A stretch of 35,203 nucleotides of DNA from Candidatus Thorarchaeota archaeon (GTDB taxonomy: Archaea > Asgardarchaeota > Thorarchaeia > Thorarchaeales > Thorarchaeaceae), in NCBI GenBank assembly GCA_048884965.1, contig JBHLQH010000003.1:1-35203 (forward strand). The letters are read 5' to 3'. The position numbers were made by a program, and so were the translations under genes. The notes under the pieces were generated by a model. That model made no database searches. It had not been told where the DNA came from and saw only the letters and a program-made list of their open reading frames with translations. Shown here piece after piece: positions 4,676 to 34,292 of this stretch. Numbering within the stretch: position 1 is the first letter of the stretch; every line of letters starts with the position of its first letter.

Positions 4676-4918
4676 GATGAGTAGTCGTAGGTGAATCCGA
4701 GAACACATATAATAGAGCTGTTCAACGTAAGTACATCATCACGTTTGGGCATATGACTTTTGGCAAAATGAGTAGATTTTGCGCATTCCAGCGCTTAGCC
4801 ATCCGTACAGCTGTAATTTAAATCCCGGCAAGCCAATTATGGATATGTTTTTGCTAGGCCAATAAGTGTGCTAAGGGAGGTAGGGAACTTCCTGAGCACA
4901 TTGATTCCTTTTCCCCTA

Positions 4919-7420
4919 ATGGAGGATAAGAAATTGAAGCTAGTGAAGTCAAGTGTGATATTGATTTTGGTATTGATATTGTGCAGTTCAATATTGATGT
5001 TTGGTGGAGAACTGACGAACAAGATCATCATTAGCACAAAACCTGTTAGTCTAAGTGCTGGAGATCCGCCAATAGAGATAGCTGGCGATGTTGAATTCAA
5101 TACAACAGCCTTTGCCAACGGATGGAGCGGTAATGGGACCGAAATCAACCCGTATATCATCGAATATCAAGTAATCGACAAGGCTTTTGGACAAGGGCCG
5201 TGTATCAATATTAGTGATACTAGAGCCTATTTCATTATTCGATATTGTGACCTTCGATACGCAACTTACTATCTGAATGGTGCGGGAGTCTACCTAACTA
5301 ATGTCACCAATGGTCAAATTGTTCAGAATACAATCTTCTATAATGAATATGGAATCTACATGTCCTCCTGTCAAGACATTGTTGTGTTCAACAACTCAAT
5401 GTCTTCCATAGATCGTGCAGGACTTTCTCTCTTCAGCTCAAGTTCACTAACTATCGAAAACAATACTATGGATGCAGGGATTGAATTCTGGTGGAGTCAT
5501 TCGAATATCTTGGTAAACAACACACTGGCAGTCGATGGCTTTGATTTCGTCGGATACTATACGGGCGATTTTACGCAGAGTTTTGTTGACGATAATACAG
5601 TCAGTGGAAAGCCCATCATCTTCTGGCAGCATCAAATTGGTGGGACTGTTCCGACTGATGCTGGTCAAGTAATTCTTTTGAACTGTTCAGAATACACTGT
5701 ACGCGATCAGATAATCGACTCGTCGAAAAATGGTATTGACATTATTCGATGCACTGAGATTACAGTAACCAACAACACTCTAACAGGATGCTATAGAGGG
5801 ATTCGCCTCTGCTATTCGCAATCTATAGAAGTTTTCGAGAACAATTGTACTGCAAACAGTCGTTGGGGTATATATCTAGATTCAACATCGGACTCTGAGA
5901 TTCAATACAACCTATGCCAGAATCATTTTAGCTCCGGGTTAGGGGTCGGAATCTATGCCACCACAAGTGAAAACATAACGATTTCTGAGAATAATTGCAC
6001 AACGAATGATGTTGGCATTGAAACCTATTCAAATACCCAGAAATGTAAGATCTTTGATAATATTTGCAATGAGAATTCTCGTGGGATCTCAATGCAGATG
6101 TCTAGGTTGAATGAGGTCTTTGAAAATGAAGTGGTATGGAATACACAATATGGGGTGGTCATCTATAGTCCCTCTGATGACAACATGATAATGAATAACA
6201 ACTTGTCAGAAAATCCACGTGGTGTGTATCTGTCGAACTGTCCTCAGAACCACATCATCAACAACTCGATTTCTGCATCGCACGTAAGCGGGTCCTATGG
6301 AGTCTACGTTTCTGGTGGTTCTGAAGGCCATGTCATTTTTGACAATAAGATTCAGTTCGTAAATTGCGCGATATATCTGAAAGATTCTCTCTATAATACA
6401 CTGAGCTACAATAATCTCACACAGAACAATCTATCTATCTACCTTATCTCGTCAAATCACACCACAATCGCTCATAATCTTCTAGATGGGGGCGATGATA
6501 TCGGCCTCTATATGGAATCAAACACCTGCGACAATGAGATGACTTGGAATGTCTTCAATGATTGTGACATCAACGCTATTGATGATGGTTCTGATTCACT
6601 CTTTGATTACAATTACTGGAGCAACTATACAGGTATTGATGCTGATAGCGATGGAATTGGGGATACGCCACATCCGATTCAGGGCATTGCAGATAACTCT
6701 GATGCGCACCCAGTTGTTGTACTTCCAGAGACGCCAGTGTGGATGAATGGTCCTGAGGATCAGGTTCTCGAATTTGGCGAATCTTTCCACTACGACCTTA
6801 ACGCCACAGTAAGTACGGTTATAGGTGGGTGGAGTCTAAGTGATATGACGGACTTTACTATCAATTCCGAGGGGGTCATTACAAATATCACCTCTCTCTC
6901 AGTTGGTATCTATCCTCTCTATGTTGATGTTTTTGATATATATGGAATGACTCTCACTGGATTCTTTATTCTTGAAGTAGAAGACACCACATCTCCTTCT
7001 TGGGTATCGGTTCCAGAAAATCAGATTCTAGATTACGACGAGTCATTCTCATACCAGCTCGAAGCATTTGATCTTTCAGGAATTCATACTTGGTATCTCA
7101 ACAATACATCCGAGTTCTCCATTAACAACTCCGGTTTGATAACTAATAATACAATGCTTGCACCAGGGGTATACCATCTCTATGTAGAAGCTTCAGATGT
7201 GTATGGCAATCTAGTTAGTGCCACATTTGATGTGATTGTTCAAGAATCAACTACTACAACTACAGCCACAAGCACCAGTACAACTACATCAACTTCAACA
7301 CACTCAACGACACCCACTCAGCCACCCTTTTTGCTAGACCCCACACTGTTAATGGTTCTGGGAATAGGTGCAGCTGCTTTCGTCATTGTGATAGTATTAG
7401 TCCTTCGAAAACGGGCATAA
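4919..7420 (+). CDS. Cell-surface protein: NosD/CASH right-handed beta-helix, two cadherin/Ig-like repeats, Thr/Ser linker, C-terminal TM anchor
   Basis: Likely start MEDKKLK at 4919 (track starts 4868). Signal peptide; GNGTEINPYIIE; many GI-x-L...NN beta-helix turns; NYWSNYTGIDADSDGIGDTP; two 87-aa repeats; TTTTTATSTST linker; FVIVIVLVLRKRA end. Confidence 0.88.
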   Translation: MEDKKLKLVKSSVILILVLILCSSILMFGGELTNKIIISTKPVSLSAGDPPIEIAGDVEFNTTAFANGWSGNGTEINPYIIEYQVIDKAFGQGPCINISDTRAYFIIRYCDLRYATYYLNGAGVYLTNVTNGQIVQNTIFYNEYGIYMSSCQDIVVFNNSMSSIDRAGLSLFSSSSLTIENNTMDAGIEFWWSHSNILVNNTLAVDGFDFVGYYTGDFTQSFVDDNTVSGKPIIFWQHQIGGTVPTDAGQVILLNCSEYTVRDQIIDSSKNGIDIIRCTEITVTNNTLTGCYRGIRLCYSQSIEVFENNCTANSRWGIYLDSTSDSEIQYNLCQNHFSSGLGVGIYATTSENITISENNCTTNDVGIETYSNTQKCKIFDNICNENSRGISMQMSRLNEVFENEVVWNTQYGVVIYSPSDDNMIMNNNLSENPRGVYLSNCPQNHIINNSISASHVSGSYGVYVSGGSEGHVIFDNKIQFVNCAIYLKDSLYNTLSYNNLTQNNLSIYLISSNHTTIAHNLLDGGDDIGLYMESNTCDNEMTWNVFNDCDINAIDDGSDSLFDYNYWSNYTGIDADSDGIGDTPHPIQGIADNSDAHPVVVLPETPVWMNGPEDQVLEFGESFHYDLNATVSTVIGGWSLSDMTDFTINSEGVITNITSLSVGIYPLYVDVFDIYGMTLTGFFILEVEDTTSPSWVSVPENQILDYDESFSYQLEAFDLSGIHTWYLNNTSEFSINNSGLITNNTMLAPGVYHLYVEASDVYGNLVSATFDVIVQESTTTTTATSTSTTTSTSTHSTTPTQPPFLLDPTLLMVLGIGAAAFVIVIVLVLRKRA
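6734..7246 (+). repeat. Two tandem ~87-aa cadherin-like/Ig-like domains within the surface protein
   Basis: PVWMNGPEDQVLEFGESFHYDLNA...FTINSEGVITN...GIYPLYVDVFDIYG aligns with PSWVSVPENQILDYDESFSYQLEA...FSINNSGLITN...GVYHLYVEASDVYG; the period is 261 nt. Confidence 0.8.
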
Positions 7421-7438
7421 ATCTAGAAAATGTCATCT

Positions 7439-7463
7439 ATGACAGGGGACATACCCCTGTCAT
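7439..7463. terminator. Perfect 10-bp hairpin downstream of the surface-protein gene
   Basis: ATGACAGGGG-acata-CCCCTGTCAT, 18 nt after the stop codon. There is no strong U-tract, so the function is uncertain. Confidence 0.45.
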
Positions 7464-7573
7464 CTCTCTATTTAAGTTGAGCAATCTTGGATAGATTCTC
7501 TCATTACTCCCAAGATGCTAAATGCGACTTCGTCCTTGAACGACTATTAATGCTGAGAGGAGGAATCACATCA

Positions 7574-8059
7574 TTGCTGTTTTGCCCCAAATGCGGTAAG
7601 AAAACATTGGCCAAGAATCAAGAGAAAACCTATCGCGTATCCTGCTCTTCCTGCGATTATTTTGAATATGACAACCCTGCACCTGCAGTGGCTGCAATCT
7701 TGGTTTATAATGGCAATCTGATTGTAATGCAATACAAAGACAGACCTCATCTTTGGGGGCTACCTGGTGGGTTTGTCGATTCGGGCGAGGATTTAGAAAC
7801 AGCTTTGGTTCGCGAGGTGAAAGAGGAAACAGGTTTGGAAATCACCATTACTGGATATCTGAATTCCTACCCCACGAAGAGACACGATAAGGATGTCGTT
7901 TTCATCGTCTTTACCGCCAGAAGCACCTCTAACACCATAACTTTGGGTGATGAGCATCTACAGGTGCTAGCATTGCCGCCTCATGAGGCATATGATAGAC
8001 TCACAGGAACCTACTCAAAGCAAGCAGTCAGTGAGTGGTTGGAGTATACAGGAATGTAG
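7574..8059 (+). CDS. Nudix hydrolase with N-terminal zinc ribbon
   Basis: CPKC...CSSC ribbon; YDNPAPAV; Nudix box GGFVDSGEDLETALVREVKEETG. TTG 7574 follows a GAGGAGGA SD (track start 7487 is probably too early). Confidence 0.9.
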   Translation: MLFCPKCGKKTLAKNQEKTYRVSCSSCDYFEYDNPAPAVAAILVYNGNLIVMQYKDRPHLWGLPGGFVDSGEDLETALVREVKEETGLEITITGYLNSYPTKRHDKDVVFIVFTARSTSNTITLGDEHLQVLALPPHEAYDRLTGTYSKQAVSEWLEYTGM

Positions 8060-8127: not shown

Positions 8128-9318
8128 TCATCTTCGCTTGAGCAGCACGACTATTGAAATCCCGATTACTGAGACAATGACTAATGTTGAAATCAGAATC
8201 GTGACTGGTCCAATGTATATTGGAATGCTCTGAGTAGGACCTGTAATTGACGGAAGAATATAGTTTCTAACCAAGAGTAGAACAGGATTTCCATAAGCAA
8301 TGCTTGCTGTTACACTCACCACCAAATCATAATCTGGAAGCACAATTAAGTGCTGATTGTACGCTCCCAATGCATAGAAAGCATTGATGTCTGGCATAGT
8401 CCACCAAAGATGACCATATCCTTTCGTTTCAGAGAACGAATATTGTGTTCCTATCGAATCTCGAATCCACTCTCGAGAGATCACTTGTTTGTTATCCCAT
8501 GTTCCATTGTTCAAGAATAAATAGCCAATCTTTGCTAAATCTAATGCAGTAAGTCCGAAATGACCCCCTGCTATGAAGTATCCATCAGGATTCTGTTCCC
8601 AATAGTAATCAGTGATTCCAATAGGATCAAAGAGATATTCCTCTGCGAATTCGCCCAAAGTCATGCCTGTCAAGCCCTCAATAATCGGGGAAATCAAGAA
8701 TATTGACCCTGAATTATACTCCCACTGAATTCCTGGTTCTGCTTCCATAGGAAGATCCAGCATGAACTGGATCCAGTCATCACTTTGGGTAAGCTGAAAA
8801 TAGCTATTCATCGGGCTCTCATACGAGTATGAAGTTTCATCCCAAGAAAGACCAGAGGTCATCGTCAGTAAGTGTTCTAATGTCCAGCTCTCCTTTCGAT
8901 TATCCATATTCGCAATTGTTCTATCTGGGAAGAAATCAATGACTCTTTGACTTAGATTGGAGATGTATCCTAAATCAATCACAATTCCAACCAATGCTGA
9001 AGACACACTTTTGGCAACTGATGCTAGGACATGGAGTCCTTCTCCATCATAATTCCCCGACGGAAGCTCATTCAACACAAGGTATCCATTTCGAATAATA
9101 GAGATGGAATCTATATCCATACTATGGTCGTTAATGTATTGTAGCATTTCACCAAGAAGAGATGAATTCAGTCCTTGGACTTCCGGTGCAACCTCTCTCC
9201 ATTCATTGGTAGGCCAGTAATCTCTTGACATAGATGTTATTTCATGTTGAAGAGGGCCCATGGTGAGTGATAGTGTAATTATCAGAGCAGATATGAGAAG
9301 GGTTGGTCTTGAAATCAT
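8128..9318 (-). CDS. Secreted, membrane-anchored serine hydrolase (beta-lactamase class C / NylB-like family)
   Basis: Signal peptide; SxxK (SVAK); LLTMTSGL; PGIQWEYNS; GYGHLWW; C-terminal TM + KRR. Confidence 0.9.
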   Translation of the reverse strand: MISRPTLLISALIITLSLTMGPLQHEITSMSRDYWPTNEWREVAPEVQGLNSSLLGEMLQYINDHSMDIDSISIIRNGYLVLNELPSGNYDGEGLHVLASVAKSVSSALVGIVIDLGYISNLSQRVIDFFPDRTIANMDNRKESWTLEHLLTMTSGLSWDETSYSYESPMNSYFQLTQSDDWIQFMLDLPMEAEPGIQWEYNSGSIFLISPIIEGLTGMTLGEFAEEYLFDPIGITDYYWEQNPDGYFIAGGHFGLTALDLAKIGYLFLNNGTWDNKQVISREWIRDSIGTQYSFSETKGYGHLWWTMPDINAFYALGAYNQHLIVLPDYDLVVSVTASIAYGNPVLLLVRNYILPSITGPTQSIPIYIGPVTILISTLVIVSVIGISIVVLLKRR

Positions 9319-9648
9319 TGTAGTTTTCAGCTCTCCAGCTAGCTATTATTTTTTGTAATTAAAGGTGGTTATCGCCGTAAAATTTGGTAACTGTCGAGTT
9401 GAGTCCACCTCTTCTCGCTCCTGAGTCGATAACTTCGAAACCAATTACGACTTGAGAACATCCAATCAATAATTCTAGCAGGATGACGGGCTTGATGGTT
9501 TTCACACTGGCAGGTGCTGCGCCGAGTCAGAGTTGGTTTTCCCCCTCTTTGATCGGTTTAGCATTCAGTCGGAAAGTGCCATTAGTCATTTTTACGAATG
9601 CTAATAACGATGGATGAGCCATAGTCACCTAGATGCGGGGAGAAATCT

Positions 9649-11022
9649 TTGTCGAAGTCATCTGTACATCCTAGAGTTCTACAACCTGACTACATTGAGC
9701 AGAGAGCGGATCTTTACCTTATGATATGGCGAGATATCCCTCACTGGATGGTTGCAGATGCAGATGTCCTCAAGACAATCAAGCTCGCAGATGGCACACG
9801 ACGCATATCTGATATAGTGTCAGTCATTCAAGAATCTGGCTCTCCTAGCCCAAGCTATGATGAGATAGGAATGCTGCTTGTCACTCTGGAGAAGGCTGAA
9901 CTAGTTCCTCAGGATGGACCTACACCTCAAGCGGCACCAATAGATCCACTCCTTGAGAATGTAACTGTCAATGTGACACGCCATTGCAATTTGAGATGCA
10001 CGCATTGCTTTGTACCAAATTCTGACAGCATAAGAACCACTCTTGATGTCAATGATTTGGAACGATTCTTAGAAGAAGGCTCTCAAAGCATATCCCCCAA
10101 TCTCAACTTTGCGATTCTAGGAGGAGAGCCCCTTCTTGAGAAAGAAAAGACCTTGGATATCGCTCGTTTGGGTAATAAGTTAGGTGCTGAGGTCATAGTA
10201 TCCACAAACGGTTTGCTTATAGATGATGAATTCGCGCAAAATGCTAAGGATTTAGGTCTTGCTGTACAGGTTTCGCTTGAGGGATCGACATCAGAGCTGA
10301 ACGATACAATTCGTGGCGAAGGAAGCTTCGAGCGAGCTATGAAAGGTGTAAAGATTCTCGTTAATAATGGGACCTATTCTCTAATCTCAATGGTTGTAAC
10401 GATGAATAACCTCAGTGATATTCCCGCCTTCTATCATCTAGGCCGCAAACTTGGTGTTAATGAAATCAGATTCATTGAGATGCGCCGCATGGGGCGCGCA
10501 TTGAGTGAAGGGATTGAACCAGTACCAAGTGCTGTTCTTGTGGAATCTATTCACAAACTTCTCACAGACCATCCAGAAGCCCGTAAGTATGTGATACGCG
10601 ACCATCTCTCTGTTATGAAGTACCTCTGCGCACGATCAAAGAAGCGCGCATACTGTGGAGCTGGTTTGAAGACGATCCTGATTGATGCAGATGGAGAAGT
10701 CTATCCGTGTCCCAATCACGCGAAACCGGAATTCTCCTGTGGTAATATCAGAAACCACTTATTCGGAGAGATTTGGATGGAATCTGATACTCTGAAGCAT
10801 CTTCGCTCAACCTATCAAATCGACCAAATCAACGAAGTATGCTCGCAATGTGCTATCAAGTATTGGTGCTTGGGAGGCTGCCGAGGAGAAACCTATGAGA
10901 ACACCACAAATCTACGGGCTGTTGGAGTGGGATGTGAATCTCTGCGTAAAGGCATCATCGAAACCTTTTGGCTACTTGCTACAGGGGAGGAAGCAACTGC
11001 AACCAAGACTGAATATTTCTAG
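9649..11022 (+). CDS. Radical SAM/SPASM peptide-maturase-like protein with N-terminal PqqD/RRE-like domain
   Basis: CNLRCTHC; GGEPLL; STNG; SPASM motif CGAG...GEVYPC...CSQCAIKYWCLGGC...C. The N-terminal ~90 aa have the RRE pattern (LYLMIW..HWMVAD..IKLADGTRRISDIV..LLVTLEKAELV). Confidence 0.92.
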   Translation: MSKSSVHPRVLQPDYIEQRADLYLMIWRDIPHWMVADADVLKTIKLADGTRRISDIVSVIQESGSPSPSYDEIGMLLVTLEKAELVPQDGPTPQAAPIDPLLENVTVNVTRHCNLRCTHCFVPNSDSIRTTLDVNDLERFLEEGSQSISPNLNFAILGGEPLLEKEKTLDIARLGNKLGAEVIVSTNGLLIDDEFAQNAKDLGLAVQVSLEGSTSELNDTIRGEGSFERAMKGVKILVNNGTYSLISMVVTMNNLSDIPAFYHLGRKLGVNEIRFIEMRRMGRALSEGIEPVPSAVLVESIHKLLTDHPEARKYVIRDHLSVMKYLCARSKKRAYCGAGLKTILIDADGEVYPCPNHAKPEFSCGNIRNHLFGEIWMESDTLKHLRSTYQIDQINEVCSQCAIKYWCLGGCRGETYENTTNLRAVGVGCESLRKGIIETFWLLATGEEATATKTEYF

Positions 11023-11088
11023 GTATGTGTGTCCGCGCTCACATCTAGATTAATATGGAAGTGAAACCATTTATTGTACGGTGGTAGT

Positions 11089-11313
11089 ATGAAGATTGTA
11101 GGACAGAGTTTCATCGACCCCTCTGAGAGGTTCTTCCATGGCATGTACCTCTCTGCTCAAGGAAATCCTGCCATTGATCCTATAGTTGGACTTCTAGGAC
11201 CTTATTTTCCATCTATAGTTCTTATGTTTCTGATAGCTGTAGTGCTAATTGGGTCCTTCATGTATCTAAGCAAAAGAACACCGCCAGTTGCTACAAATCT
11301 GCCCATGGAATAA
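11089..11313 (+). CDS. 74-aa single-TM small protein; candidate substrate of the adjacent rSAM/SPASM enzyme
   Basis: ATG 11089 with GGTGG SD, 66 nt after the rSAM stop, same strand. MKIVGQSFIDPSERFFHGMY..., TM SIVLMFLIAVVLIGSFMYL, then SKR. Confidence 0.65.
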   Translation: MKIVGQSFIDPSERFFHGMYLSAQGNPAIDPIVGLLGPYFPSIVLMFLIAVVLIGSFMYLSKRTPPVATNLPME

Positions 11314-11430: not shown

Positions 11431-12255
11431 TCAGGAGCGAAGTATCTTCTGAAGAGATTCTTTCTTCATAAATTGGTAGTTTACCAGCTTACCATCAAAT
11501 ACAATCCCAAATACGCCATATGCTGAGGGGGACTTCTCCTGGAGTTCCTTTGCAGTTCTTAGATGCACAGTCTTTGCCTTGACTCCCTCTTCTTTTGCTG
11601 CTTCCAACGACATCTCTACTGCCTCCGGTGTATAAGGGCATTGAGATGAATAGAAGACTGTCAATCCCTTGCCACAGCGCTTCTGTCGCTCATCCCAGTT
11701 CGTTGGAAATGTTGGATTTGGCACATCTCTGAACCGCTTCACAACAAGCTCGAATCCCATTGGAGCTGAGTCGACCATCTCAAAACCGTTCTTGAGAAGG
11801 ATTTTCTTTCCGGTCAACCAATTCCCATCGTTAGTGACCATCGCAACTCCATCCATACCTCTTTTCTTTGCGTCAGCGACACAGGCCTCAAGTAGCATTC
11901 TACCGAAGCCCTTCTTCTTCCACTGACCTACTACCCATAGACAATGTATCACCATGAAGTTCGGTGCATGTACTACACGCCATGCATACTCTCCAGGGAT
12001 ATACTCGATGAACCCCCTTGATGTCATCTTTCCTCGTTCGTTGACGAATAACACCTTCATGCGCATGCCTTCATTGTATCTTTCCTGAAACCAACCTAGC
12101 TTCGATTGATACCCTTCTTCCTTCTTCTTTGATTTCTTACAGAAGAGGTCATATTGTGCTTCATTCTCGGGTGTGATATCAATGACTTCATACTCTGGGA
12201 GCATCTGTTTCAACTCCATTGAGAATTGGGTCCGATTGGTCCAATTAGAATTCAT
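11431..12255 (-). CDS. YoaP-family GNAT N-acetyltransferase
   Basis: GFIEYIPGEYAWR; IHCLWVVGQWKKKGFGRMLL (GNAT motif A); C-terminal YoaP-like QCPY...SPSAYGVFGIVFDGK. The true start may be a downstream ATG. Confidence 0.88.
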   Translation of the reverse strand: MNSNWTNRTQFSMELKQMLPEYEVIDITPENEAQYDLFCKKSKKKEEGYQSKLGWFQERYNEGMRMKVLFVNERGKMTSRGFIEYIPGEYAWRVVHAPNFMVIHCLWVVGQWKKKGFGRMLLEACVADAKKRGMDGVAMVTNDGNWLTGKKILLKNGFEMVDSAPMGFELVVKRFRDVPNPTFPTNWDERQKRCGKGLTVFYSSQCPYTPEAVEMSLEAAKEEGVKAKTVHLRTAKELQEKSPSAYGVFGIVFDGKLVNYQFMKKESLQKILRS

Positions 12256-12274: not shown

Positions 12275-14230
12275 CTATCTGGCATGCCGAATATCATCAA
12301 GAGACTCTGGGTTCACTAAGGCTGCGGTATCTCCTAAATCATCACCCAAATACGCTGCTCTAATCATCCGTCTCATGACCTTCGCATTTCGAGTCTTTGG
12401 GAGATCTCTCACAAAGAGAATCTCTTTTGGTGTGAGGGGACGGCCCATCTGGTTACCTATCAACGTCTTCAGCTCCTTTCTGAGGGCTTCTGTCGGGGCA
12501 GTATCTTCTCTTAGTACGCAAAATAGCACGAGCTCATTCAGTTTGATATCGTGTGGGATTCCTATAACAGCAGCCTCTACGACTGCAGGATGCGAAACTG
12601 CAATGGACTCCGGTTCAGCTGGTCCAACGCGTTTTCCTGCAACCTTTATGATATCATCCGACCTTCCAAGGATGTACCAGAGTCCATCGGCATCGATTGC
12701 TGCAAAGTCCCCATGAACCCATACATTTTCCCAGCGGCTCCAATAGGTATCTTCGTACCGCGATGGATTCTTCCAGAATCCTCTTGTCATGCCAATCCAA
12801 GGTGCCTTAATGACAAGCTCACCAACCTGCCCTTGCACAGATCTGCCCTGCTCATCGAAGACATCTGCTGCTATTCCCGGACAGGGTCCTGAAAAGGCAC
12901 ACGCCTTTAATGGGAGCAATGGGTTTCCCATTACAATCCCTCCAGAAACCTCTGTTCCCCCTGAGTAGTTGATAATCGGAATCTTCTTTTTTCCCACATT
13001 ATCGAATAGCCACATCCAAGGATCTGGGTTCCAAGGTTCTCCTGTAGATGCGAAGTAGCGCAATGATGACAGATCATGCTTTCTTACCGGCTCATCTCCA
13101 AATGTCATGAGTAGTCTGATCAATGTGGGCGATACCCCTAGAACATTGATTCTGTGTTTCTCCACCAAGCTCCACAATCGTTCAGGTCCTGGATAGTCAG
13201 GAGCTCCATCATACAGGAAGAACGTAGCTCCCAGCAATAGCGATCCAAAAACCAGCCATGGCCCCATCATCCATCCCATATCAGTCATCCAGTAGATTGT
13301 CTGATCCTCGTGCAAGTCTGTACCAAAAGCCATGTCTTGAGCAGCCTTGACTGGAAATCCGCAGTGCGTATGGACTGCGCCTTTCGCTAGTCCGGTCGTC
13401 CCCGATGTGTAGATGATCATTAAGGGGTCTTCTGCCTCAGTGATCTCTGTTTCAGCTTCATCAGGTTGCATGCCGATAATATCATTCCACCAGTGGTCTC
13501 TTCCCTCTTCCATGTCAACTGATTCATCTATGTTGTTTAGGACAATTACATGTTCAAGTGAAGGAATTTTCTCTGCTGCTTCATCAACGATCGCCTTCAT
13601 CTCAACAGTCTTTCCGCGTCGTGAAGAACCATTGACCGTGAATATCGCTTTTGCCTTAGCATCTCCTAGGCGGTCAACTATTGCACCTGGACCAAAGCCT
13701 GAGAACAGTGGGAGGATTATCCCTCCAATCTTTGCAATGGCTAACAATGCAACTACAATCTCTGGTATCATGGGCATGTAGATTCCAATAGAATCCCCTT
13801 TTTCAAGTCCAAGATCTCTGAGAGCATTTGCAGCCTTGTTTACTTCAATGAATAGGTCTCGATAGGTCATTGAACGAGTGTTTCCAAGCTCTCCTTCCCA
13901 GAGAAAGGCTGTTTTGCTCTCTCTTTGCGTATTGATGTATTTGTCCAAGCAGTTGTGGATGATATTCAAGCTCCCTCCAACGCACCACTTTGGCCAGGCA
14001 ATCCCTTCTGAGAGGTCTACGACTTTTTCATAATCATGATAGAACTTGATCTTTAGATAGGTCAATATGGCGTCTGTAAACCATGCAACGTCCTTGGTAG
14101 AACGGGTCATTAGATCTTGAAAATTGGCTATTCCATGTATTTGCATGAATTCTGTCAAGTTTGATGATTGAATATAGTCCTCTGTTGGTCTCCAGACTAT
14201 CTCTCCACCAAATTCGAAATTCTCTCTCAC
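12275..14230 (-). CDS. AMP-forming acyl-CoA synthetase, acetyl-CoA synthetase family
   Basis: YTSGTTGLAKG; STGEPW; SGGTE; HGD; GRSDD; A10 motif LPKTRNAKVMRR; ACS-type N-terminal domain. Confidence 0.92.
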   Translation of the reverse strand: MRENFEFGGEIVWRPTEDYIQSSNLTEFMQIHGIANFQDLMTRSTKDVAWFTDAILTYLKIKFYHDYEKVVDLSEGIAWPKWCVGGSLNIIHNCLDKYINTQRESKTAFLWEGELGNTRSMTYRDLFIEVNKAANALRDLGLEKGDSIGIYMPMIPEIVVALLAIAKIGGIILPLFSGFGPGAIVDRLGDAKAKAIFTVNGSSRRGKTVEMKAIVDEAAEKIPSLEHVIVLNNIDESVDMEEGRDHWWNDIIGMQPDEAETEITEAEDPLMIIYTSGTTGLAKGAVHTHCGFPVKAAQDMAFGTDLHEDQTIYWMTDMGWMMGPWLVFGSLLLGATFFLYDGAPDYPGPERLWSLVEKHRINVLGVSPTLIRLLMTFGDEPVRKHDLSSLRYFASTGEPWNPDPWMWLFDNVGKKKIPIINYSGGTEVSGGIVMGNPLLPLKACAFSGPCPGIAADVFDEQGRSVQGQVGELVIKAPWIGMTRGFWKNPSRYEDTYWSRWENVWVHGDFAAIDADGLWYILGRSDDIIKVAGKRVGPAEPESIAVSHPAVVEAAVIGIPHDIKLNELVLFCVLREDTAPTEALRKELKTLIGNQMGRPLTPKEILFVRDLPKTRNAKVMRRMIRAAYLGDDLGDTAALVNPESLDDIRHAR

Positions 14231-30345: not shown

Positions 30346-31116
30346 ATGGCGAAAAACTCTCACGTTATCAAAACTCGAGGACTGTCGAAGAACTTCGACA
30401 CAGTTCAGGCAGTCAGAAACCTTGACCTGGAGGTTGCGACAGGCAGCCGGTTTGGATTCCTTGGCCCTAATGGTGCAGGAAAGACGACCACTGTTCGCAT
30501 ACTTTCAGGTCTTATGAAACAGACGAGTGGAGACGCAGAAGTCTGCGGATATGATGTGTCCACTCACAGGAACGAGATCAAGGCCGCAACAGGTCTGCTC
30601 CCCGAATCACCAGGTCTCTACTCAAAGCTCTCTGCTCGGGAGTTCCTAGAGTTCATTGGTGCCTTGAATGACAAGAATGGTGCAGATGCTAACAAGCGGA
30701 TAAACAACTTGCTTAGTATGTTAGGTCTTGAAAGTCGACAAGATGACCTACTTGAGTCCTACTCATCTGGTATGAAGCAGAAGGTGCTCATAGCATCAAC
30801 TCTCCTACATGAGCCAAAGCTCGTATTTCTGGATGAACCCACCTCACGACTAGATCCCGCTGCAAGTGCATTGGTCAAGGAGATTATCCTAGCACTGGCT
30901 GAGCAGACTGATACTAGTTTCTTCATTTGTACCCACATGACTGACTTTGCGGAGGATGTCTGTGATATTATTGGTATAATCAGCAATGGTGACATGGTCA
31001 TCTCTGGTGCTCCACAAGATATCATCCAGTCCGTTGGCGCTAAGGACCTAGAAGATGCATACCTGAAGATCGTTGGCGGAAAGGTAGACCGCGATACTCT
31101 ACTGGCCTGGAGGTGA
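30346..31116 (+). CDS. ABC exporter ATP-binding subunit (ABC-2/DrrA type)
   Basis: GPNGAGKTT; YSSGMKQK; FLDEPT; CTH. Confidence 0.95.
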   Translation: MAKNSHVIKTRGLSKNFDTVQAVRNLDLEVATGSRFGFLGPNGAGKTTTVRILSGLMKQTSGDAEVCGYDVSTHRNEIKAATGLLPESPGLYSKLSAREFLEFIGALNDKNGADANKRINNLLSMLGLESRQDDLLESYSSGMKQKVLIASTLLHEPKLVFLDEPTSRLDPAASALVKEIILALAEQTDTSFFICTHMTDFAEDVCDIIGIISNGDMVISGAPQDIIQSVGAKDLEDAYLKIVGGKVDRDTLLAWR

Positions 31117-32798
31117 AGATAGTGGCTAGGAACTGGCTTACTATTGCAAAGGCCGAGTTCTACGTGCTTACAGTTGGTATGAGGCCTCACAGAAAGCTAT
31201 ACACCATACTATTGTACGCCCTTGGCCTCATCTGGGCTACCTATGCCGCACCGATGGTCATGGTTGGATTCATTACAGCGCTTATTCCCCTTGAACAGAT
31301 TCGCATCATGTTATTGACGATGTTCCCTGGACTAATGCGTTCTATAATGATGTTCGTCTGGCTGATATTGATACTCTTTCCTCTCGCAAAAGGACTTGAA
31401 GAGATCAAGATTGGTCATTGGGAGCTATACCTCTCGAACAATGTGAAGACTCGTGATATCTTGACTGGCAACTTCCTTGGGCTCGCTCCTCTATATGGTC
31501 TGGTTGTGCTGGTGCTAGCTCCAATAGTCATATCCCCCTTCATGGTAGTCTATGAAGTATCACTAATTGGTCAGGTGCTTGTCTATGCATTTCTAGCAGT
31601 CTCAGCTATTACGGCTATATGGTTCTCCACATTCCTGACCGCCGCTATTCAATCTAGACTCGGTGACTCATCTCGCGGAAATGACATTGCAAAGGCTCTC
31701 TCGGTTGTCGTAGCTATAGCCGCGATCTTGCCTATGTATTCGCTAATGTTCGCAATGGAAGCAATGTCACAGATTCTTGGAATGAATGCGTTCCTCCTCC
31801 TACCATTTACTTGGAGTGCAGATGTCATTAGCTGGATTACCATCATGTTCAATGGCGTTGGTCTGACCGGGTCGCAGATACTTGGCTTCAGCTCGATCCT
31901 AGAACTCGATCTCCTAACAAGTGTTGCTTTAATGAGTGGCTTTACACTCTTGCTTATTAGCGGCTCTCTGTTATCGTGTGATAGGATTTTCAGCATCAGT
32001 GCTGGAGCACGAACTGAGCGAGTCACTACGATCAATAAGGAGAATATCTTCGTAAAGGGTCTTCGTAAGATGAATAGCGGTCCCTTTGGCACTCTCATGG
32101 CTATCAACGCAAAGGACTACTTCAGAAAGGCTCAGAACCTCTCGAAGCTGTTCTACGGTCTAGTCCTAGCATGTGTTTTACCTGTGATGATGACTTTTGT
32201 AGGTGACATGGATAGTGAAGGCATTCCCATCTTGCAACTGACTGGCATCTTTGGAATGATGTTTGCGATGGCAGGTGGCTTTCCCCATGCGGGAATTGCA
32301 TTTCTCGAAAGCCGGGATCAGCTCTGGATTCTTCAGGGAACTCCTAATGGAGCTTCGAAGTTCATCAAATCTCGTATTGCCATGTCTTCTATGACCAATG
32401 TGTTCATTGCGATGATTCCTACAGCAGTGATAGTCTTCCTCTTCCAGTTGAGTATTGTTGAAGCACTAGTGATATACTGCTTTGGATTGATTGTCATAAT
32501 CGGTTCATCGATGGTAGCAATTGGTGTTACAGCTAGGAATCCCAACTATGAAGATACCAAGTCTCCTGCACATCAAGCAAATGTCATGATGGCAATGATG
32601 ATACCGATGTTCGCAATGATGTCTTCATTCATCGTTCTGATAGTCTTGACAATCTCAAAACTCGATATTGCACTCGAGTCAGTACTTGGTGTGTTTGGCT
32701 TTGAGCTATTCTTCACGCTGATAGGTCCAGCCATACTCTTGACTCTTGGAGCGATTCTCTTGGTATCAGGCATTCGAAGTCTATCAAGACCAGAATAA
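31113..32798 (+). CDS. ABC exporter permease (multi-TM, two halves)
   Basis: Roughly 12-14 hydrophobic segments; 4-nt GTGA overlap with the ATPase stop codon. Confidence 0.85.
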   Translation: MKIVARNWLTIAKAEFYVLTVGMRPHRKLYTILLYALGLIWATYAAPMVMVGFITALIPLEQIRIMLLTMFPGLMRSIMMFVWLILILFPLAKGLEEIKIGHWELYLSNNVKTRDILTGNFLGLAPLYGLVVLVLAPIVISPFMVVYEVSLIGQVLVYAFLAVSAITAIWFSTFLTAAIQSRLGDSSRGNDIAKALSVVVAIAAILPMYSLMFAMEAMSQILGMNAFLLLPFTWSADVISWITIMFNGVGLTGSQILGFSSILELDLLTSVALMSGFTLLLISGSLLSCDRIFSISAGARTERVTTINKENIFVKGLRKMNSGPFGTLMAINAKDYFRKAQNLSKLFYGLVLACVLPVMMTFVGDMDSEGIPILQLTGIFGMMFAMAGGFPHAGIAFLESRDQLWILQGTPNGASKFIKSRIAMSSMTNVFIAMIPTAVIVFLFQLSIVEALVIYCFGLIVIIGSSMVAIGVTARNPNYEDTKSPAHQANVMMAMMIPMFAMMSSFIVLIVLTISKLDIALESVLGVFGFELFFTLIGPAILLTLGAILLVSGIRSLSRPE

Positions 32799-32816
32799 AA
32801 TTGGAGGGGGAATTTA

Positions 32817-34292
32817 GTGAAAAGAAACACAATTCGCGTGGCTTTGGTGTTGACTACTGTGGCACTCTTAGGGGTGCCACTTACAACACCCCACGCACCA
32901 CCGTCCTCTAGAAGAGATTTCTCTCCAAGTACAAGTACATACGGACATATCGATGGAGTCCCTTATGTGTGGCAAGAGATTAACGGCTACTGTTACTGGG
33001 CATCTGTCGATATGGCTTTACAGTATGCTGGTTTGAATTTGGATCTTGGTGGATTCTTTGCAGCTTCAGGAATTGGGTTTTCTTCAGTCTACATCATGAT
33101 AGATGATCTTCAGATGTTCATGTCTGGGTCCTCATTCAGGCAGCAACAGCAAATACCCTATATTGCTGAATTGCTAGGTCTTGATTATATTGCATATTTC
33201 GATTCGAACTCAGAATGGATCCAGATTGTTGCACCCTACTGGTCTGATTGGGGATTCAATTTCGAACTCATTGATGGTTCAGTTGAGGCCTTAGATAAAC
33301 TCCGAGATCTGATTGATACAGGATATCCTGCAGTTCTTTGGGTTGACCCATATTGGCTACCTGCAGAGGACTATGTTGACTTGAGAAGTGTATTTTCTCC
33401 TCAAGATCCTGCAGCCCCAGCGTCTGGGCATGCCATTGTAGTCACAGGATATAATGACACATCAGAAACTGTTGAGATTATGGATCCCGGTGTAGGTGCT
33501 TTTGGAGAAAATTATGGCTATCCTAGTGATGGGAGGTATTTCTATACTGCAAACTATACTACTCTTGATCTAGCTTGGAAGACTCTCGGGTATGGAACCA
33601 TTGCTTTCATGTCAGGAGATACTGTAGAAAACCAAGAGGAGCGCATTGGAGCCTTCATAGCGAATCGTCTTCTTGGCAATGCGACCTCCTATGCTTCTGA
33701 TCTAGAAGATCTTTTCTTCGCAGGCTTTGGCGAATCTGCATTTAGAGGGCTATCTCTAGATACAACAAAAGATGGGATCAAGAACTATCTAGGTGAACAC
33801 AACGATACTGCTGATTGGCCATATGTACTTGCTATTACTGGATTATCTCATGAGTCATACATGAGCCTTCAATATCCTGCCTACAGATCAGCCCTTGAAG
33901 CGTTGCCCTCCCTAATGCCATCTTATGATGTAACCGAAGTGGTTGAACTGGGCAGAGCGGCATATCCACATATGGTAGCATTAAGCAACAACGCATCTCT
34001 TGTTGACCTCTACTATACATACAATGGATCGGAATTGACAAGGACTTATTTTGGCATTGCTGAAAGATATCAAGAAACAGAGGATATTGATGTCGCCTTA
34101 GATGAATTTAGTGAGGACATAGAAAGTCTTACAGAGCATTTCCTAGGAATTGCGGATGCATGGCAAGCAGCTGGCGAGGCTTTGGAATCTGTTCTTGAGG
34201 ATGCTGATTCGGTTCTATTCATGTTAGTGGGTATCGGTACTCTAACTATGAGCATCTTTGCAGTACTCGTAGTTGTCCGGAGGAGGCGTTAA
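32817..34292 (+). CDS. Secreted, membrane-anchored C39-like/BtrH-N-like papain-fold peptidase
   Basis: Signal peptide; VPYVWQEINGYCYWAS (Gln, Cys); SGHAIVVTGY (His); IMDPG (Asp); C-terminal TM + RRRR; GGAGG SD. Confidence 0.82.
   Translation: MKRNTIRVALVLTTVALLGVPLTTPHAPPSSRRDFSPSTSTYGHIDGVPYVWQEINGYCYWASVDMALQYAGLNLDLGGFFAASGIGFSSVYIMIDDLQMFMSGSSFRQQQQIPYIAELLGLDYIAYFDSNSEWIQIVAPYWSDWGFNFELIDGSVEALDKLRDLIDTGYPAVLWVDPYWLPAEDYVDLRSVFSPQDPAAPASGHAIVVTGYNDTSETVEIMDPGVGAFGENYGYPSDGRYFYTANYTTLDLAWKTLGYGTIAFMSGDTVENQEERIGAFIANRLLGNATSYASDLEDLFFAGFGESAFRGLSLDTTKDGIKNYLGEHNDTADWPYVLAITGLSHESYMSLQYPAYRSALEALPSLMPSYDVTEVVELGRAAYPHMVALSNNASLVDLYYTYNGSELTRTYFGIAERYQETEDIDVALDEFSEDIESLTEHFLGIADAWQAAGEALESVLEDADSVLFMLVGIGTLTMSIFAVLVVVRRRR

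Follow-up and report, generated by a model that had tools for sequence, protein, structure and literature searches.

The window analyzed here, a 35,203 nt stretch of a Candidatus Thorarchaeota genome, contains two neighboring genes that encode a radical SAM enzyme and a small membrane protein. The features of both genes are collected in Table 1. The ATG at 11089 is the best start for the smaller of the two, and an equivalent Met begins every homologue.

Table 1. Features of the enzyme gene and the small membrane protein gene, in window coordinates.
Feature	Position	Strand	Basis
RRE / radical SAM / SPASM enzyme gene	9649..11022	+	ORF, 457 aa, TTG start
Shine-Dalgarno-like GGGGAG	9637..9642	+	6 nt 5' of the enzyme TTG; read from sequence
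RRE domain, N-terminal, ~aa 11-83	9679..9897	+	model secondary structure; co-alignment with the CteB and TigE RRE
CxxxCxxC, SAM-binding cluster ligands C113, C117, C120	9985..10008	+	alignment
SPASM region, eight conserved Cys	10627..10935	+	Pfam SPASM and alignment conservation
74-aa membrane protein gene, presumed substrate	11089..11313	+	ORF, ATG start; homologues; adjacency in orthologous loci
Shine-Dalgarno-like GGTGGT	11080..11085	+	3 nt 5' of the small-gene ATG; read from sequence
Leader-like segment aa 1-10 (MKIVGQSFID)	11089..11118	+	conservation; co-fold
Core aa 15-23 (FFHGMYLSA), invariant His17 and Tyr20	11131..11157	+	conservation; co-fold
Transmembrane helix aa 42-60	11212..11268	+	hydropathy; TM helix at the homologous position in all partners
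Lys62-Arg63, basic cluster after the helix, predicted cytoplasmic side	11272..11277	+	K+R bias of partners

The larger gene had been described in an earlier note as a maturase with an RRE-like N-terminus, a CxxxCxxC motif and a full SPASM motif, and each of these elements is borne out. Pfam assigns residues 107-263 to Radical_SAM (E 1.7e-22) and residues 336-401 to SPASM (E 2.4e-11), and the C113-x3-C117-x2-C120 motif is invariant across 22 homologues. Eight Cys are conserved in the SPASM region of the family (327, 336, 354, 398, 401, 407, 411, and 429), of which C336, C354, C401, C407, C411, and C429 are invariant, with conservation of at least 90% at C327 and C398; the enzyme carries both the seven-Cys SPASM auxiliary-cluster motif and the radical SAM core that define the class. 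The N-terminal region has no match to the Pfam PqqD model at E 0.01. In the AF2 model of the enzyme (mean pLDDT 90), this region folds with pLDDT above 90 into the three strands (15-19, 22-27, and 32-37) and three helices (38-46, 53-62, and 70-82) of a PqqD-like RRE, and W27, P31, W33, V35, D37, and E39 are conserved within it. Residues 11-447 of the model superpose on CteB (Z 28.6) and residues 4-446 on TigE (Z 25.4); the best structural matches are CteB, anSME, SuiB, TigE, and ChlB, and the best PDB sequence match is CteB (E 1e-29), in an alignment that includes part of the CteB RRE.

In the 74-aa protein, a single TM helix separates a soluble tail at the N-terminus from a basic tail at the other end. 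All of the elements previously read from its sequence are present, namely MKIVGQSFIDPSE, the aromatic patch RFFHGMY, a second IDP, GPYFP, the hydrophobic stretch at 42-60, and SKR, and comparison with its relatives (the homologues are 56-60% identical) separates those that matter from those that do not. Conservation covers the MKIxGQS leader, the FFHGMY-x-SA core, the TM helix and the basic cluster behind it, whereas the second IDP and GPYFP occur only in this protein or its closest relatives, and are therefore probably incidental. The protein contains no Cys, as had been remarked, and because its core is Cys-free it is not a substrate of the sacti- or ranthipeptide type. Pfam and NCBIfam searches with the 74-aa protein returned no match, and a protein-atlas search gave only scores below 0.9, without informative neighbors. 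A C-terminal signal of the archaeosortase type (GPYFP, TM helix, and SKR) was considered and rejected, because the relatives do not share the motif in front of the helix and because 11-20 residues follow the basic cluster.

The small protein is a real, conserved partner of the enzyme. An enzyme orthologue occurs in 5 of 400 Asgard genomes, and the N-terminal module of the small protein occurs in the same five, beside the enzyme and nowhere else (profile E-values down to 1e-18); a single orphan module without the enzyme was found in an Asgard genome that is 66% complete. Beyond these genomes, an HMM scan of approximately 55 bacterial and archaeal orthologue loci recovered 89 distinct partners, while the same scan found the module at none of 17 paralogous radical SAM loci and none of 20 distant-homologue loci. 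The co-occurrence that the earlier note had proposed to look for in the flanks of the orthologues is present with almost no exceptions. Of the three refuting conditions set out in that note, two were examined, those on co-occurrence and on the PqqD fold, and the proposal withstood both. Three loci of the family with adequate flanks (L030, L077, and L088) have no partner. The genes adjoin directly in Thorarchaeota, Loki-type and other Asgard contigs, and in bacteria also in Victivallales, Armatimonadota, and Planctomycetota. A profile built from six Thor-type partners retrieved only nine proteins from 1.84 billion representatives; it is too narrow for the bacterial relatives, which were instead found as neighbors of the enzyme, for which 243 homologues with E below 1e-40 were obtained among the candidates scored.

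This distribution does not agree with the initial description of an archaeal system, as the Asgard occurrences are few and most members of the family are bacterial (Planctomycetota, Armatimonadota, Myxococcota, and others). The pairing is found in archaea and in roughly twelve bacterial phyla, whose base compositions differ greatly. In a quick tree the Asgard members form a monophyletic clade (support 100) nested among bacterial rows, while in an AU test a tree with all bacteria in one clade was not rejected (p 0.65) and this constrained tree scored higher, so neither the origin of the system nor a direction of transfer can be claimed. One carrier, the Lentisphaerae bacterium WC36, is represented by a complete genome and may be amenable to culture.

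Conservation among the partners is concentrated at the very start of the protein, where the module reads M-K-I-x-[GA]-[QH]-S followed by [FY]-x-H-x-G-Y-x-[SA]-A, with leader variation of the form M-[KRQ]-[IVL]-x-[GA]-[QH]-[SG]. The core His and the core Tyr are each present in 96 of 96 partners, an aromatic residue at -2 in 95, and [SA] at +5 in 92; Met1, His17, and Tyr20 are invariant in a set of 47 diverse sequences. The distance from Met1 to the His is 16 in 70 of the 96 partners and 17 in a further 19 (together 89), and overall the core lies 15-19 residues from Met1, usually 16, with one module per protein. Any Cys at all is found in only 8 of 96 modules. Two aromatic-x-X triplets are conserved ([FY]-x-H and Y-x-[SA]), the presence of which does not in itself imply cross-linking. 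Neither a conserved Glu four residues before the Tyr (among the 96 modules) nor a conserved cleavage motif between core and TM1 (in the partner alignment) was found.

Co-folding of the enzyme with the partner, as the earlier note had suggested for the RRE and the N-terminus of the small protein, placed the leader on the RRE in the predicted complex. The score was 0.86, compared with 0.00 for the best control; in calibration, 58 of 80 solved complexes attained this mark, as did 2 of 110 mismatched pairs, under conditions that do not include the custom alignments and riding ligands used here. The leader-RRE complexes SuiB-SuiA, CteB-CteA, and ChlB-ChlA are already solved, and since such related complexes exist the co-fold may pass by likeness. 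Three runs share at least 43% of contacts, and the pLDDT of the partner is at least 47 (about 50). The lowest-error contacts are between partner residues 3-7 and enzyme residues 31-37, at RRE strand beta3; in all, RRE residues 31-37, 39-43, and 68-83 touch the partner. Partner residues 13-18 are modeled in the catalytic cleft, in contact with enzyme residues 103-104, 149/151, 322-342, and 354, and Tyr20 falls outside the confidently placed residues.

Partner sizes vary from 37 to 386 aa with 1-4 TM helices (two in 65 of 88), and many bacterial partners, 180-386 aa long, combine 2-4 TM helices with a folded domain that resembles a pseudopilin. The pseudopilin motif SAG-x-DG-x-FGT-x-DD occurs in 29 of 89 partners, Pfam T2SSG exceeds its cut-off of 21 in two bacterial partners (21.6 and 27.5 bits), and Foldseek gave weak matches, to pseudopilins only. 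The 74-aa protein of the window has no T2SSG domain and ends 14 residues past its TM helix. The putative substrate is less a small precursor peptide, as originally envisaged, than the N-terminal tail of a membrane protein 37-386 aa in length.

These proteins also provide a basis for predicting topology. Lys and Arg are more numerous after TM1 than before it in 84 of 88 partners (means 3.5 vs 0.73). Pseudopilin domains belong outside the membrane, and in a partner with two helices an outside domain places the N-terminal tail outside as well. The positive-inside rule, together with homology to the bacterial partners, therefore predicts that the partner N-tail faces outward.

We consider it likely (probability approximately 0.7) that the two genes are an enzyme-substrate pair, in which the enzyme modifies the N-terminal tail of the small protein and the modified tail is displayed on the outer face of the membrane. 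Under this reading, the RRE would grip partner residues ~2-8 (MKIVGQS) as an added beta-strand, and the docked leader would bring the core (15-FFHGMYLSA-23) into the cleft that separates the SAM barrel from the SPASM domain; delivery of this kind is suggested by the near-constant distance of 16-17 residues between Met1 and His17. A 5'-deoxyadenosyl radical would then abstract a hydrogen atom from the core, and two auxiliary clusters, for which the eight conserved Cys are available, would take the electron away. On insertion, the modified protein would cross the membrane once, leaving the basic tail in the cytoplasm and the N-tail outside, an orientation that would expose the modified tail on the outer face. 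The reaction that we favor is an oxidative cross-link (-2 Da) that would involve His17 and Tyr20, and could be either a bond from His-N to Tyr-C-beta, as in dynobactin, or a cyclophane-type bond from ring to C-beta within F15-F16-H17 and Y20-L21-S22. By analogy with characterized enzymes the His/Tyr cross-link is our best guess, and epimerization, hydroxylation, desaturation or another reaction are possible alternatives.

Several characterized systems share parts of this arrangement. The enzyme has the same three-domain RRE-rSAM-SPASM architecture as CteB (which acts on CteA), StsB, PapB, and the SCIFF maturases, and StsB is its best NCBIfam model (159 bits, cut-off 625); PapB (97 vs 340) and the SCIFF maturase (70 vs 425) are likewise far below their cut-offs. 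In the solved leader-RRE complexes the leader lies on RRE strand beta3, as is predicted by the model for the pair in the window. CteB leaves an auxiliary-cluster site open for a substrate Cys; the enzyme studied here differs in having eight Cys available to ligate both auxiliary clusters fully, and the system as a whole differs from those of the thioether maturases in that the core is Cys-free and the putative substrate is a membrane protein. An archaeal example with this enzyme architecture is CrpC of Methanococcus voltae, which was shown to modify not a short peptide but CrpA, a protein encoded beside it (PMC13692751). CrpA is Cys-rich and receives ranthionine thioethers (PMC13692751), whereas the partner described here is Cys-free, membrane-embedded, and conserved in its first ~23 residues only.

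For the presumed chemistry, the invariant His and Tyr three residues apart make DynA the closest precedent. In the dynobactin system (DynA/DynB), DynA installs a bond from His-N to Tyr-C-beta, a His-Tyr N-C(sp3) link (PMC10288494). Both DynA and DarE, the latter from the darobactin system, act on Cys-free aromatic cores like that of the partner. The DynA model scores 94 bits against the enzyme (cut-off 450), the linked residues of dynobactin are His-x-Tyr (i, i+2) while the core here is His-x-x-Tyr (i, i+3) with a hypothetical link, and dynobactin and darobactin are short antibiotics that are secreted and derive from precursors both small and soluble, unlike the membrane protein of the window. 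Triceptide maturases, also RRE-containing rSAM-SPASM enzymes, join an aromatic ring to the C-beta two residues on in aromatic-x-X motifs, and the precursors known for them, which are small and soluble, carry the motifs in repeats; the family described here has one module per protein, followed by TM helices, and no triceptide model is among the 25 NCBIfam matches listed for the enzyme.

The systems of PqqE/PqqD/PqqA and MftC/MftB/MftA, which make redox cofactors, resemble the proposed one in that an RRE-dependent SPASM enzyme acts on a conserved Tyr. Among NCBIfam models, MftC ranks second for the enzyme (140 bits, cut-off 265) and first for one bacterial homologue (132 bits), and PqqE scores 90 bits (cut-off 381). 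In PqqD and MftB the RRE is a separate protein, while here it is fused to the enzyme. The Tyr of MftA is C-terminal (Gly-Val-Tyr) and that of PqqA lies in Glu-x3-Tyr, while in the partner the Tyr is internal (residue 20 of 74), lacks a conserved Glu at -4 and belongs to a membrane-anchored protein. A sulfatase maturase of the anSME type, which has no RRE and acts on Cys/Ser-x-Pro/Ala-x-Arg of a sulfatase, was tried as an assignment, also for the bacterial homologues with sulfatase genes in their flanks, and set aside (100 bits, cut-off 349): an RRE is present, the sulfatase neighborhood is not conserved, and the small residue at +5 of the module alternates between Ser and Ala and so is not an obligate Ser target.

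The main competing explanation, which we regard as unlikely though the strongest of the alternatives, is that the small protein is a true RiPP precursor: once modified, the module would be freed from its anchor by a protease, intramembrane or of another kind, to act as a signal, bacteriocin or metal-binding peptide, and the TM helix would be only a follower or an export handle. The genomic context of the bacterial members lends this some weight, as in 29 bacterial loci the gene immediately upstream of the enzyme encodes a CPBP intramembrane protease. The linked protease is Rce1-like (PF02517, 67.8 bits), and its nearest NCBIfam models, all of them below their cut-offs, are the sorting-type MrtS (50 vs 130) and MrtJ (45 vs 75) together with MroQ (28 vs 270). 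A CPBP link is shared with peptide precursors at the membrane that CPBP proteases process, such as AgrD with MroQ, and with the CPBP-type sorting enzymes MrtS, MrtJ, and myxosortase; the known CPBP sorting signals are C-terminal, however, while the module here is N-terminal, and the Asgard loci have no linked CPBP. The genome from which the window derives encodes 15 CPBP proteins, all elsewhere than at this locus, which also counts in favor of release, and tandem precursor paralogues, as seen in this family, are typical of RiPP clusters.

The earlier note had remarked that neither a protease nor a transporter is adjacent, which holds for the window and for all five Asgard loci, where no adjacent protease or exporter was found and the pair is the sole conserved unit, but does not extend to the 29 bacterial loci with CPBP. 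This absence from every Asgard pair argues against a released peptide, as does the region between core and TM1, in which no cleavage motif is conserved. The pseudopilin-like partners of 180-386 aa resemble modified membrane proteins, not disposable precursors, and multi-TM partners with a periplasmic-type domain favor tethering over release. We infer that the product stays anchored in this archaeon; in the CPBP-bearing bacterial lineages, the module may be cut off after modification. Elsewhere in the window, 19-23 kb away, are genes for an ABC ATPase, a permease, and a Peptidase_C39_2-like protein, with no evidence linking them to the pair.

A second and improbable alternative is that the small protein is a tether in place of a substrate, which would either regulate the enzyme or use its RRE to dock it at the membrane, with a lipid, a cofactor or another protein as the real target. 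Such a role would suit RRE-type domains, which are binding modules, and the substrate role of the partner is itself deduced; in addition, the enzyme core is anSME-like and two bacterial homologues (L024 and L025) are near sulfatase-family genes. Sulfatase genes are not shared neighbors of the family loci, however, and the enzyme falls far short of the anSME cut-off. A tail predicted to be outside could not hold a cytoplasmic Fe-S enzyme, and the invariant His/Tyr core, its near-constant distance from the leader and its contact with the cleft in the co-fold are substrate-like. Partner genes are often in tandem, with up to five paralogues per enzyme, which fits a substrate better than a stoichiometric subunit. 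Finally, a chance ORF, to which the short length and the uninformative database and atlas searches might have pointed, is refuted by conservation at the protein level in archaea and roughly twelve bacterial phyla, where the module always opens a membrane protein encoded next to an orthologous enzyme, and by whole-genome profile matches that fall only next to the enzyme.

The enzyme-substrate reading can be extended to the family as a whole, albeit tentatively and at somewhat less than even odds: in a widespread, undescribed system, shared by Asgard archaea with Planctomycetota, Armatimonadota, Myxococcota, Lentisphaerota and further bacteria, a cytoplasmic enzyme may install a His/Tyr cross-link or cofactor on the first ~23 residues of integral membrane proteins, after which the tail would be flipped outward and permanently displayed, in bacteria often on pseudopilin-like proteins, and the product would not be a secreted natural product. 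Against NCBIfam, the enzyme reached no curated cut-off, and no description of the pairing was found in the literature searched on Asgard RiPPs, membrane precursors, CPBP/CAAX with radical SAM, His-Tyr links, or Planctomycetes/Armatimonadetes.

To our knowledge, RRE-dependent radical SAM/SPASM enzymes are known almost entirely for small released peptides or diffusible cofactors. The conserved substrate proposed here would be of another kind, the extreme N-terminus of membrane proteins with a leader of ~8-10 residues. Given a large family that reaches no curated cut-off and for which the literature searched gave no match, a confirmed modification would open a new family. If the pairing is real, it would also provide a compact enzyme and tag, in which a 23-residue module is recognized by a fused RRE, that could be easily tested. 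It would furthermore extend RiPP-type chemistry to the maturation of membrane proteins, and the question would become what role a modified His/Tyr tail plays on the outer face of such different organisms.

The window derives from an Asgard genome of Thorarchaeota type, Thorarchaeota MAGs being the source of the closest named homologues. The enzyme gene and the small partner gene are each preceded, on reading of the sequence, by a Shine-Dalgarno-like motif, and both flanking genes lie on the opposite strand; the pair therefore forms an isolated two-gene unit. The downstream flanking protein combines a GNAT acetyltransferase domain and a C-terminal thioredoxin-like domain (both weak Pfam matches), and an acetyl-CoA-synthetase-like gene, identified by sequence motifs only, adjoins it. 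Upstream of the pair, at a distance of a few kb, lies a gene for a large NosD/right-handed beta-helix surface protein, as it does in the Loki_b31 locus (L021), and this may be coincidence, such proteins being common in these genomes. Nothing was found linking the pair to a unit 19-23 kb away made up of genes for an ABC ATPase, a permease-like protein (561 aa), and a protein of 491 aa that has a Peptidase_C39_2/BtrH_N-like domain.

The 457-aa enzyme has Pfam matches to Radical_SAM (residues 107-263) and SPASM (336-401), and many radical SAM/SPASM models in NCBIfam match it, none near its curated cut-off (e.g., StsB, 159 bits vs. 625; MftC, 140 vs. 265). In an alignment of 22 homologues from Asgard archaea and bacteria, the CxxxCxxC motif (C113, C117, C120), the GGEPL motif, and the SPASM cysteines at 336, 354, 401, 407, 411, and 429 are invariant, and C327 and C398 are conserved in at least 90%; these eight cysteines would be enough for full ligation of two auxiliary clusters. 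The N-terminal ∼95 residues are likewise conserved in both domains of life (W27, P31, W33, V35, D37, E39). In the AlphaFold2 model (mean pLDDT 90.1), three strands (15-19, 22-27, 32-37) precede three helices (38-46, 53-62, 70-82), and this predicted order is that of an RRE (PqqD-like) domain. Superposition of the model covers residues 11-447 with CteB (Z 28.6, 411 aligned) and 4-446 with TigE (Z 25.4), both RRE-rSAM-SPASM enzymes with the same three domains, whereas anSME, ChlB, and PqqE, which are without an RRE, align only from residue ∼98 onward. CteB is also the top PDB sequence match (E 1e-29), beginning within its RRE. The structural comparison supports a three-domain reading of the modeled enzyme, and the description of the protein in the earlier note as an RRE-rSAM-SPASM maturase was confirmed at the level of the fold.

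The 74-aa protein has no family match in Pfam or NCBIfam, and its homologues are 56-60% identical. In two same-family relatives whose enzymes are orthologous (74 and 55% identity), the small gene directly follows the enzyme in one or two copies; it lies directly upstream in a Loki-type contig, and four paralogues lie downstream in a JGI contig. Directly comparable are the full-length bacterial homologues of the enzyme in Victivallales, Armatimonadota, and Planctomycetota (35-40% identity): the genes that follow them open with the same module. Across 80 loci on one-genome-per-species contigs, every possible ORF was scanned with an HMM of partner residues 1-32, yielding 89 distinct partners in ∼55 loci of the orthologous clade. 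Almost every one adjoins the enzyme on the same strand, and many form tandems of 2-5. The scan found no partner in 17 loci with paralogous rSAM/SPASM genes from related genomes, nor in 20 loci with enzyme homologues below ∼30% identity. Family loci without a match are mostly contig ends; within about 4 kb of a Thermoplasmatales enzyme (L030) and of a sister pair (L077/L088) no partner was detectable, and these enzymes may have a partner encoded elsewhere or another substrate. We consider the two proteins to be enzyme and substrate with a probability of about 0.8.

The enzyme is rare among the Asgard archaea: five of the 400 genomes carry it, three of them among the 86 of the window's own family. 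The module occurs in the same five genomes, adjacent to the enzyme and nowhere else in them. One of these five enzyme-adjoining copies (L107) has no ATG, GTG, or TTG start and has GGTGA 7 nt upstream of an ATT codon, so it probably starts at ATT; a standard ORF caller misses such a gene. An extra copy of the module was found in a sixth, incomplete genome, with no orthologous enzyme found within 1.5 kb or elsewhere in the assembly; this is either a true orphan or an assembly gap. In the enzyme phylogeny, the family clade holds 62 enzymes (support 100), among which the six Asgard enzymes form one clade (support 100). In a quick tree, the archaeal clade fell within bacterial rows, and an AU test did not reject bacterial monophyly (p 0.65), so no direction of transfer is claimed.

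Features of the gene pair, related loci, and their surroundings
Feature	Location	Strand	Basis or remark
Enzyme gene, 457 aa	window 9649-11022	+	ORF
Small partner gene, 74 aa	window 11089-11313	+	ORF
Membrane-anchored beta-lactamase-family hydrolase	window 8128-9318	-	ORF + Pfam
GNAT/thioredoxin-like protein, 274 aa	window 11431-12255	-	ORF + Pfam
Acetyl-CoA-synthetase-like gene	window 12275-14230	-	
NosD/beta-helix surface protein	window 4868-7420	+	
NosD/beta-helix surface protein	L021:123-1415		
ABC ATPase/permease/Peptidase_C39_2 unit	window 30346-34292	+	
Partner-type protein, 58 aa (possible orphan)	L115:1498-1674	+	module, TM helix, basic tail; genome G162, 66% complete
Partner with non-standard start	L107:823-1050	+	K-I-I-A-H after ATT codon; Loki-type genome G295
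Two-TM partners, then major-pseudopilin-like domain (D-x-W ... SAG-x-DG-x-FGT-x-DD)	L052:5379-6161, L024:5616-6155, L043:5372-5968		26 more
CPBP/Rce1-like protease gene	L041:3129-3998	+	PF02517; one of 29 loci
CPBP/Rce1-like protease gene	L072:3071-3952		PF02517 family; one of 29 loci
Thermoplasmatales family enzyme	L030:2757-4175		
Two ∼200-aa proteins	L022:5593-6207, 7127-7726		
Sulfatase genes	L024:2506-3858, 6317-7747		

Module statistics were compiled from 96 partners. The His and the Tyr three residues after it are present in all 96, the Tyr never replaced by Phe and the His by no other residue. Counting from the His, an aromatic residue stands at -2 in 95 partners (60 Tyr, 35 Phe), Gly at +2 in 75, Ser or Ala at +5 in 92, and Ala at +6 in 81. 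Residues 1-7 follow the pattern M-[KRQE]-[IVL]-x-[GAS]-[QHE]-[SG], the spacing from Met1 to the His is 16 residues in 70 partners and 17 in 19, and only 8 have any Cys in the module. Past residue ∼25, partners keep only a TM helix and then a basic cluster; the second IDP and the GPYFP of the 74-aa protein, singled out in the earlier note, are unconserved among homologues.

In the mechanism we propose, the RRE would dock the short leader, the near-constant leader-to-core spacing would bring [FY]-x-H-x-G-Y-x-[SA]-A to the active site, and the enzyme would then carry out a radical, probably oxidative, modification of the core. The enzyme was co-folded with partner residues 1-45, three 4Fe-4S clusters, and SAM, using our own alignments (the 22-homologue enzyme set and the partner set). 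The co-fold passed its controls, with a median score of 0.86 vs. 0.00 for the best control; 58 of 80 solved complexes reached that mark, as did 2 of 110 mismatched pairs, a calibration that does not extend to own alignments and ligands. Over three runs, contact agreement was at least 43% and partner pLDDT at least 47. The surest predicted contacts pair partner residues 3-7 with enzyme residues 31-37 (RRE strand beta3), and residues 13-18 are modeled touching 103-104, 149/151, 322-342, and 354, in the region between the barrel and the SPASM domain; Tyr20 is outside the confidently placed residues. The pass may reflect likeness, because similar leader-RRE complexes are already solved. The invariant Tyr and His favor a cross-link using both, which we put forward tentatively, and the dynobactin enzyme offers a precedent in its His-N to Tyr-C-beta bond (PMC10288494). 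Alternatively, the link could be of the cyclophane type and lie within the core's two aromatic-x-X triplets.

Lys and Arg are more numerous in the 15 residues after TM1 than in the 15 before it in 84 of 88 partners (means 3.5 vs. 0.73), which, by the positive-inside rule, places the N-terminal tail outside the membrane. Two TM helices are present in 65 partners, and 29 of 89 carry the motif SAG-x-DG-x-FGT-x-DD, two of these 29 with Pfam T2SSG above cut-off. For the AlphaFold2 model of a 199-aa partner (pLDDT 82), Foldseek matches are weak, the highest-ranking ones being exclusively to major pseudopilins or type IV pilins (e.g., 3g20, prob 0.96, target TM-score 0.63). Pseudopilin-type domains are located outside the membrane, and with two helices this again places the tail outside. 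The rSAM-targeted tail and TM1 of these bacterial partners occupy the usual place of a prepilin leader. The Asgard partners are the minimal form, in which the tail and a single helix are followed by a short, basic end in the cytoplasm.

When all ORFs from the family loci were clustered, the sole shared neighbor besides the enzyme and antisense artefacts was a ∼250-aa CPBP (Rce1-like) intramembrane protease (PF02517, 67.8 bits), found in 29 loci and in most of them encoded immediately upstream of the enzyme. The 29 comprise the Armatimonadota loci together with those of a clade that spans Myxococcota and further bacterial phyla. Its closest models in NCBIfam, CPBP sorting proteases and MroQ, all score below cut-off. 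The protease might be a third component of the system, one that could free the modified module from its anchor. Of the 15 CPBP genes in the window's genome, none lies on the window's contig. We rate the chances that the product stays membrane-anchored in this archaeon as about even. Other neighbors include sulfatase genes on both sides of the pair in a Victivallales genome (L024) and a phosphodiesterase/sulfatase-superfamily fragment upstream of it in L025, a gene type not conserved as a neighbor across the family. In an Asgard-type metagenome contig (L022), genes for two proteins that match no family are interspersed among four partner paralogues, and upstream, on the opposite strand, there is a faint exosortase-like gene.

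Neither the enzyme nor the partners nor the CPBP protease score above the cut-off of any curated NCBIfam family, and the enzyme-partner pairing was not found described in a literature search. Among archaea, the nearest precedent in which the substrate is a protein and not a peptide is CrpC, which installs thioethers on the Cys-rich protein CrpA (PMC13692751). The catalytic machinery and the leader-guided logic are already familiar; what is new is the module and the class of substrate, the N-terminal tails of integral membrane proteins, and presumably also the product.
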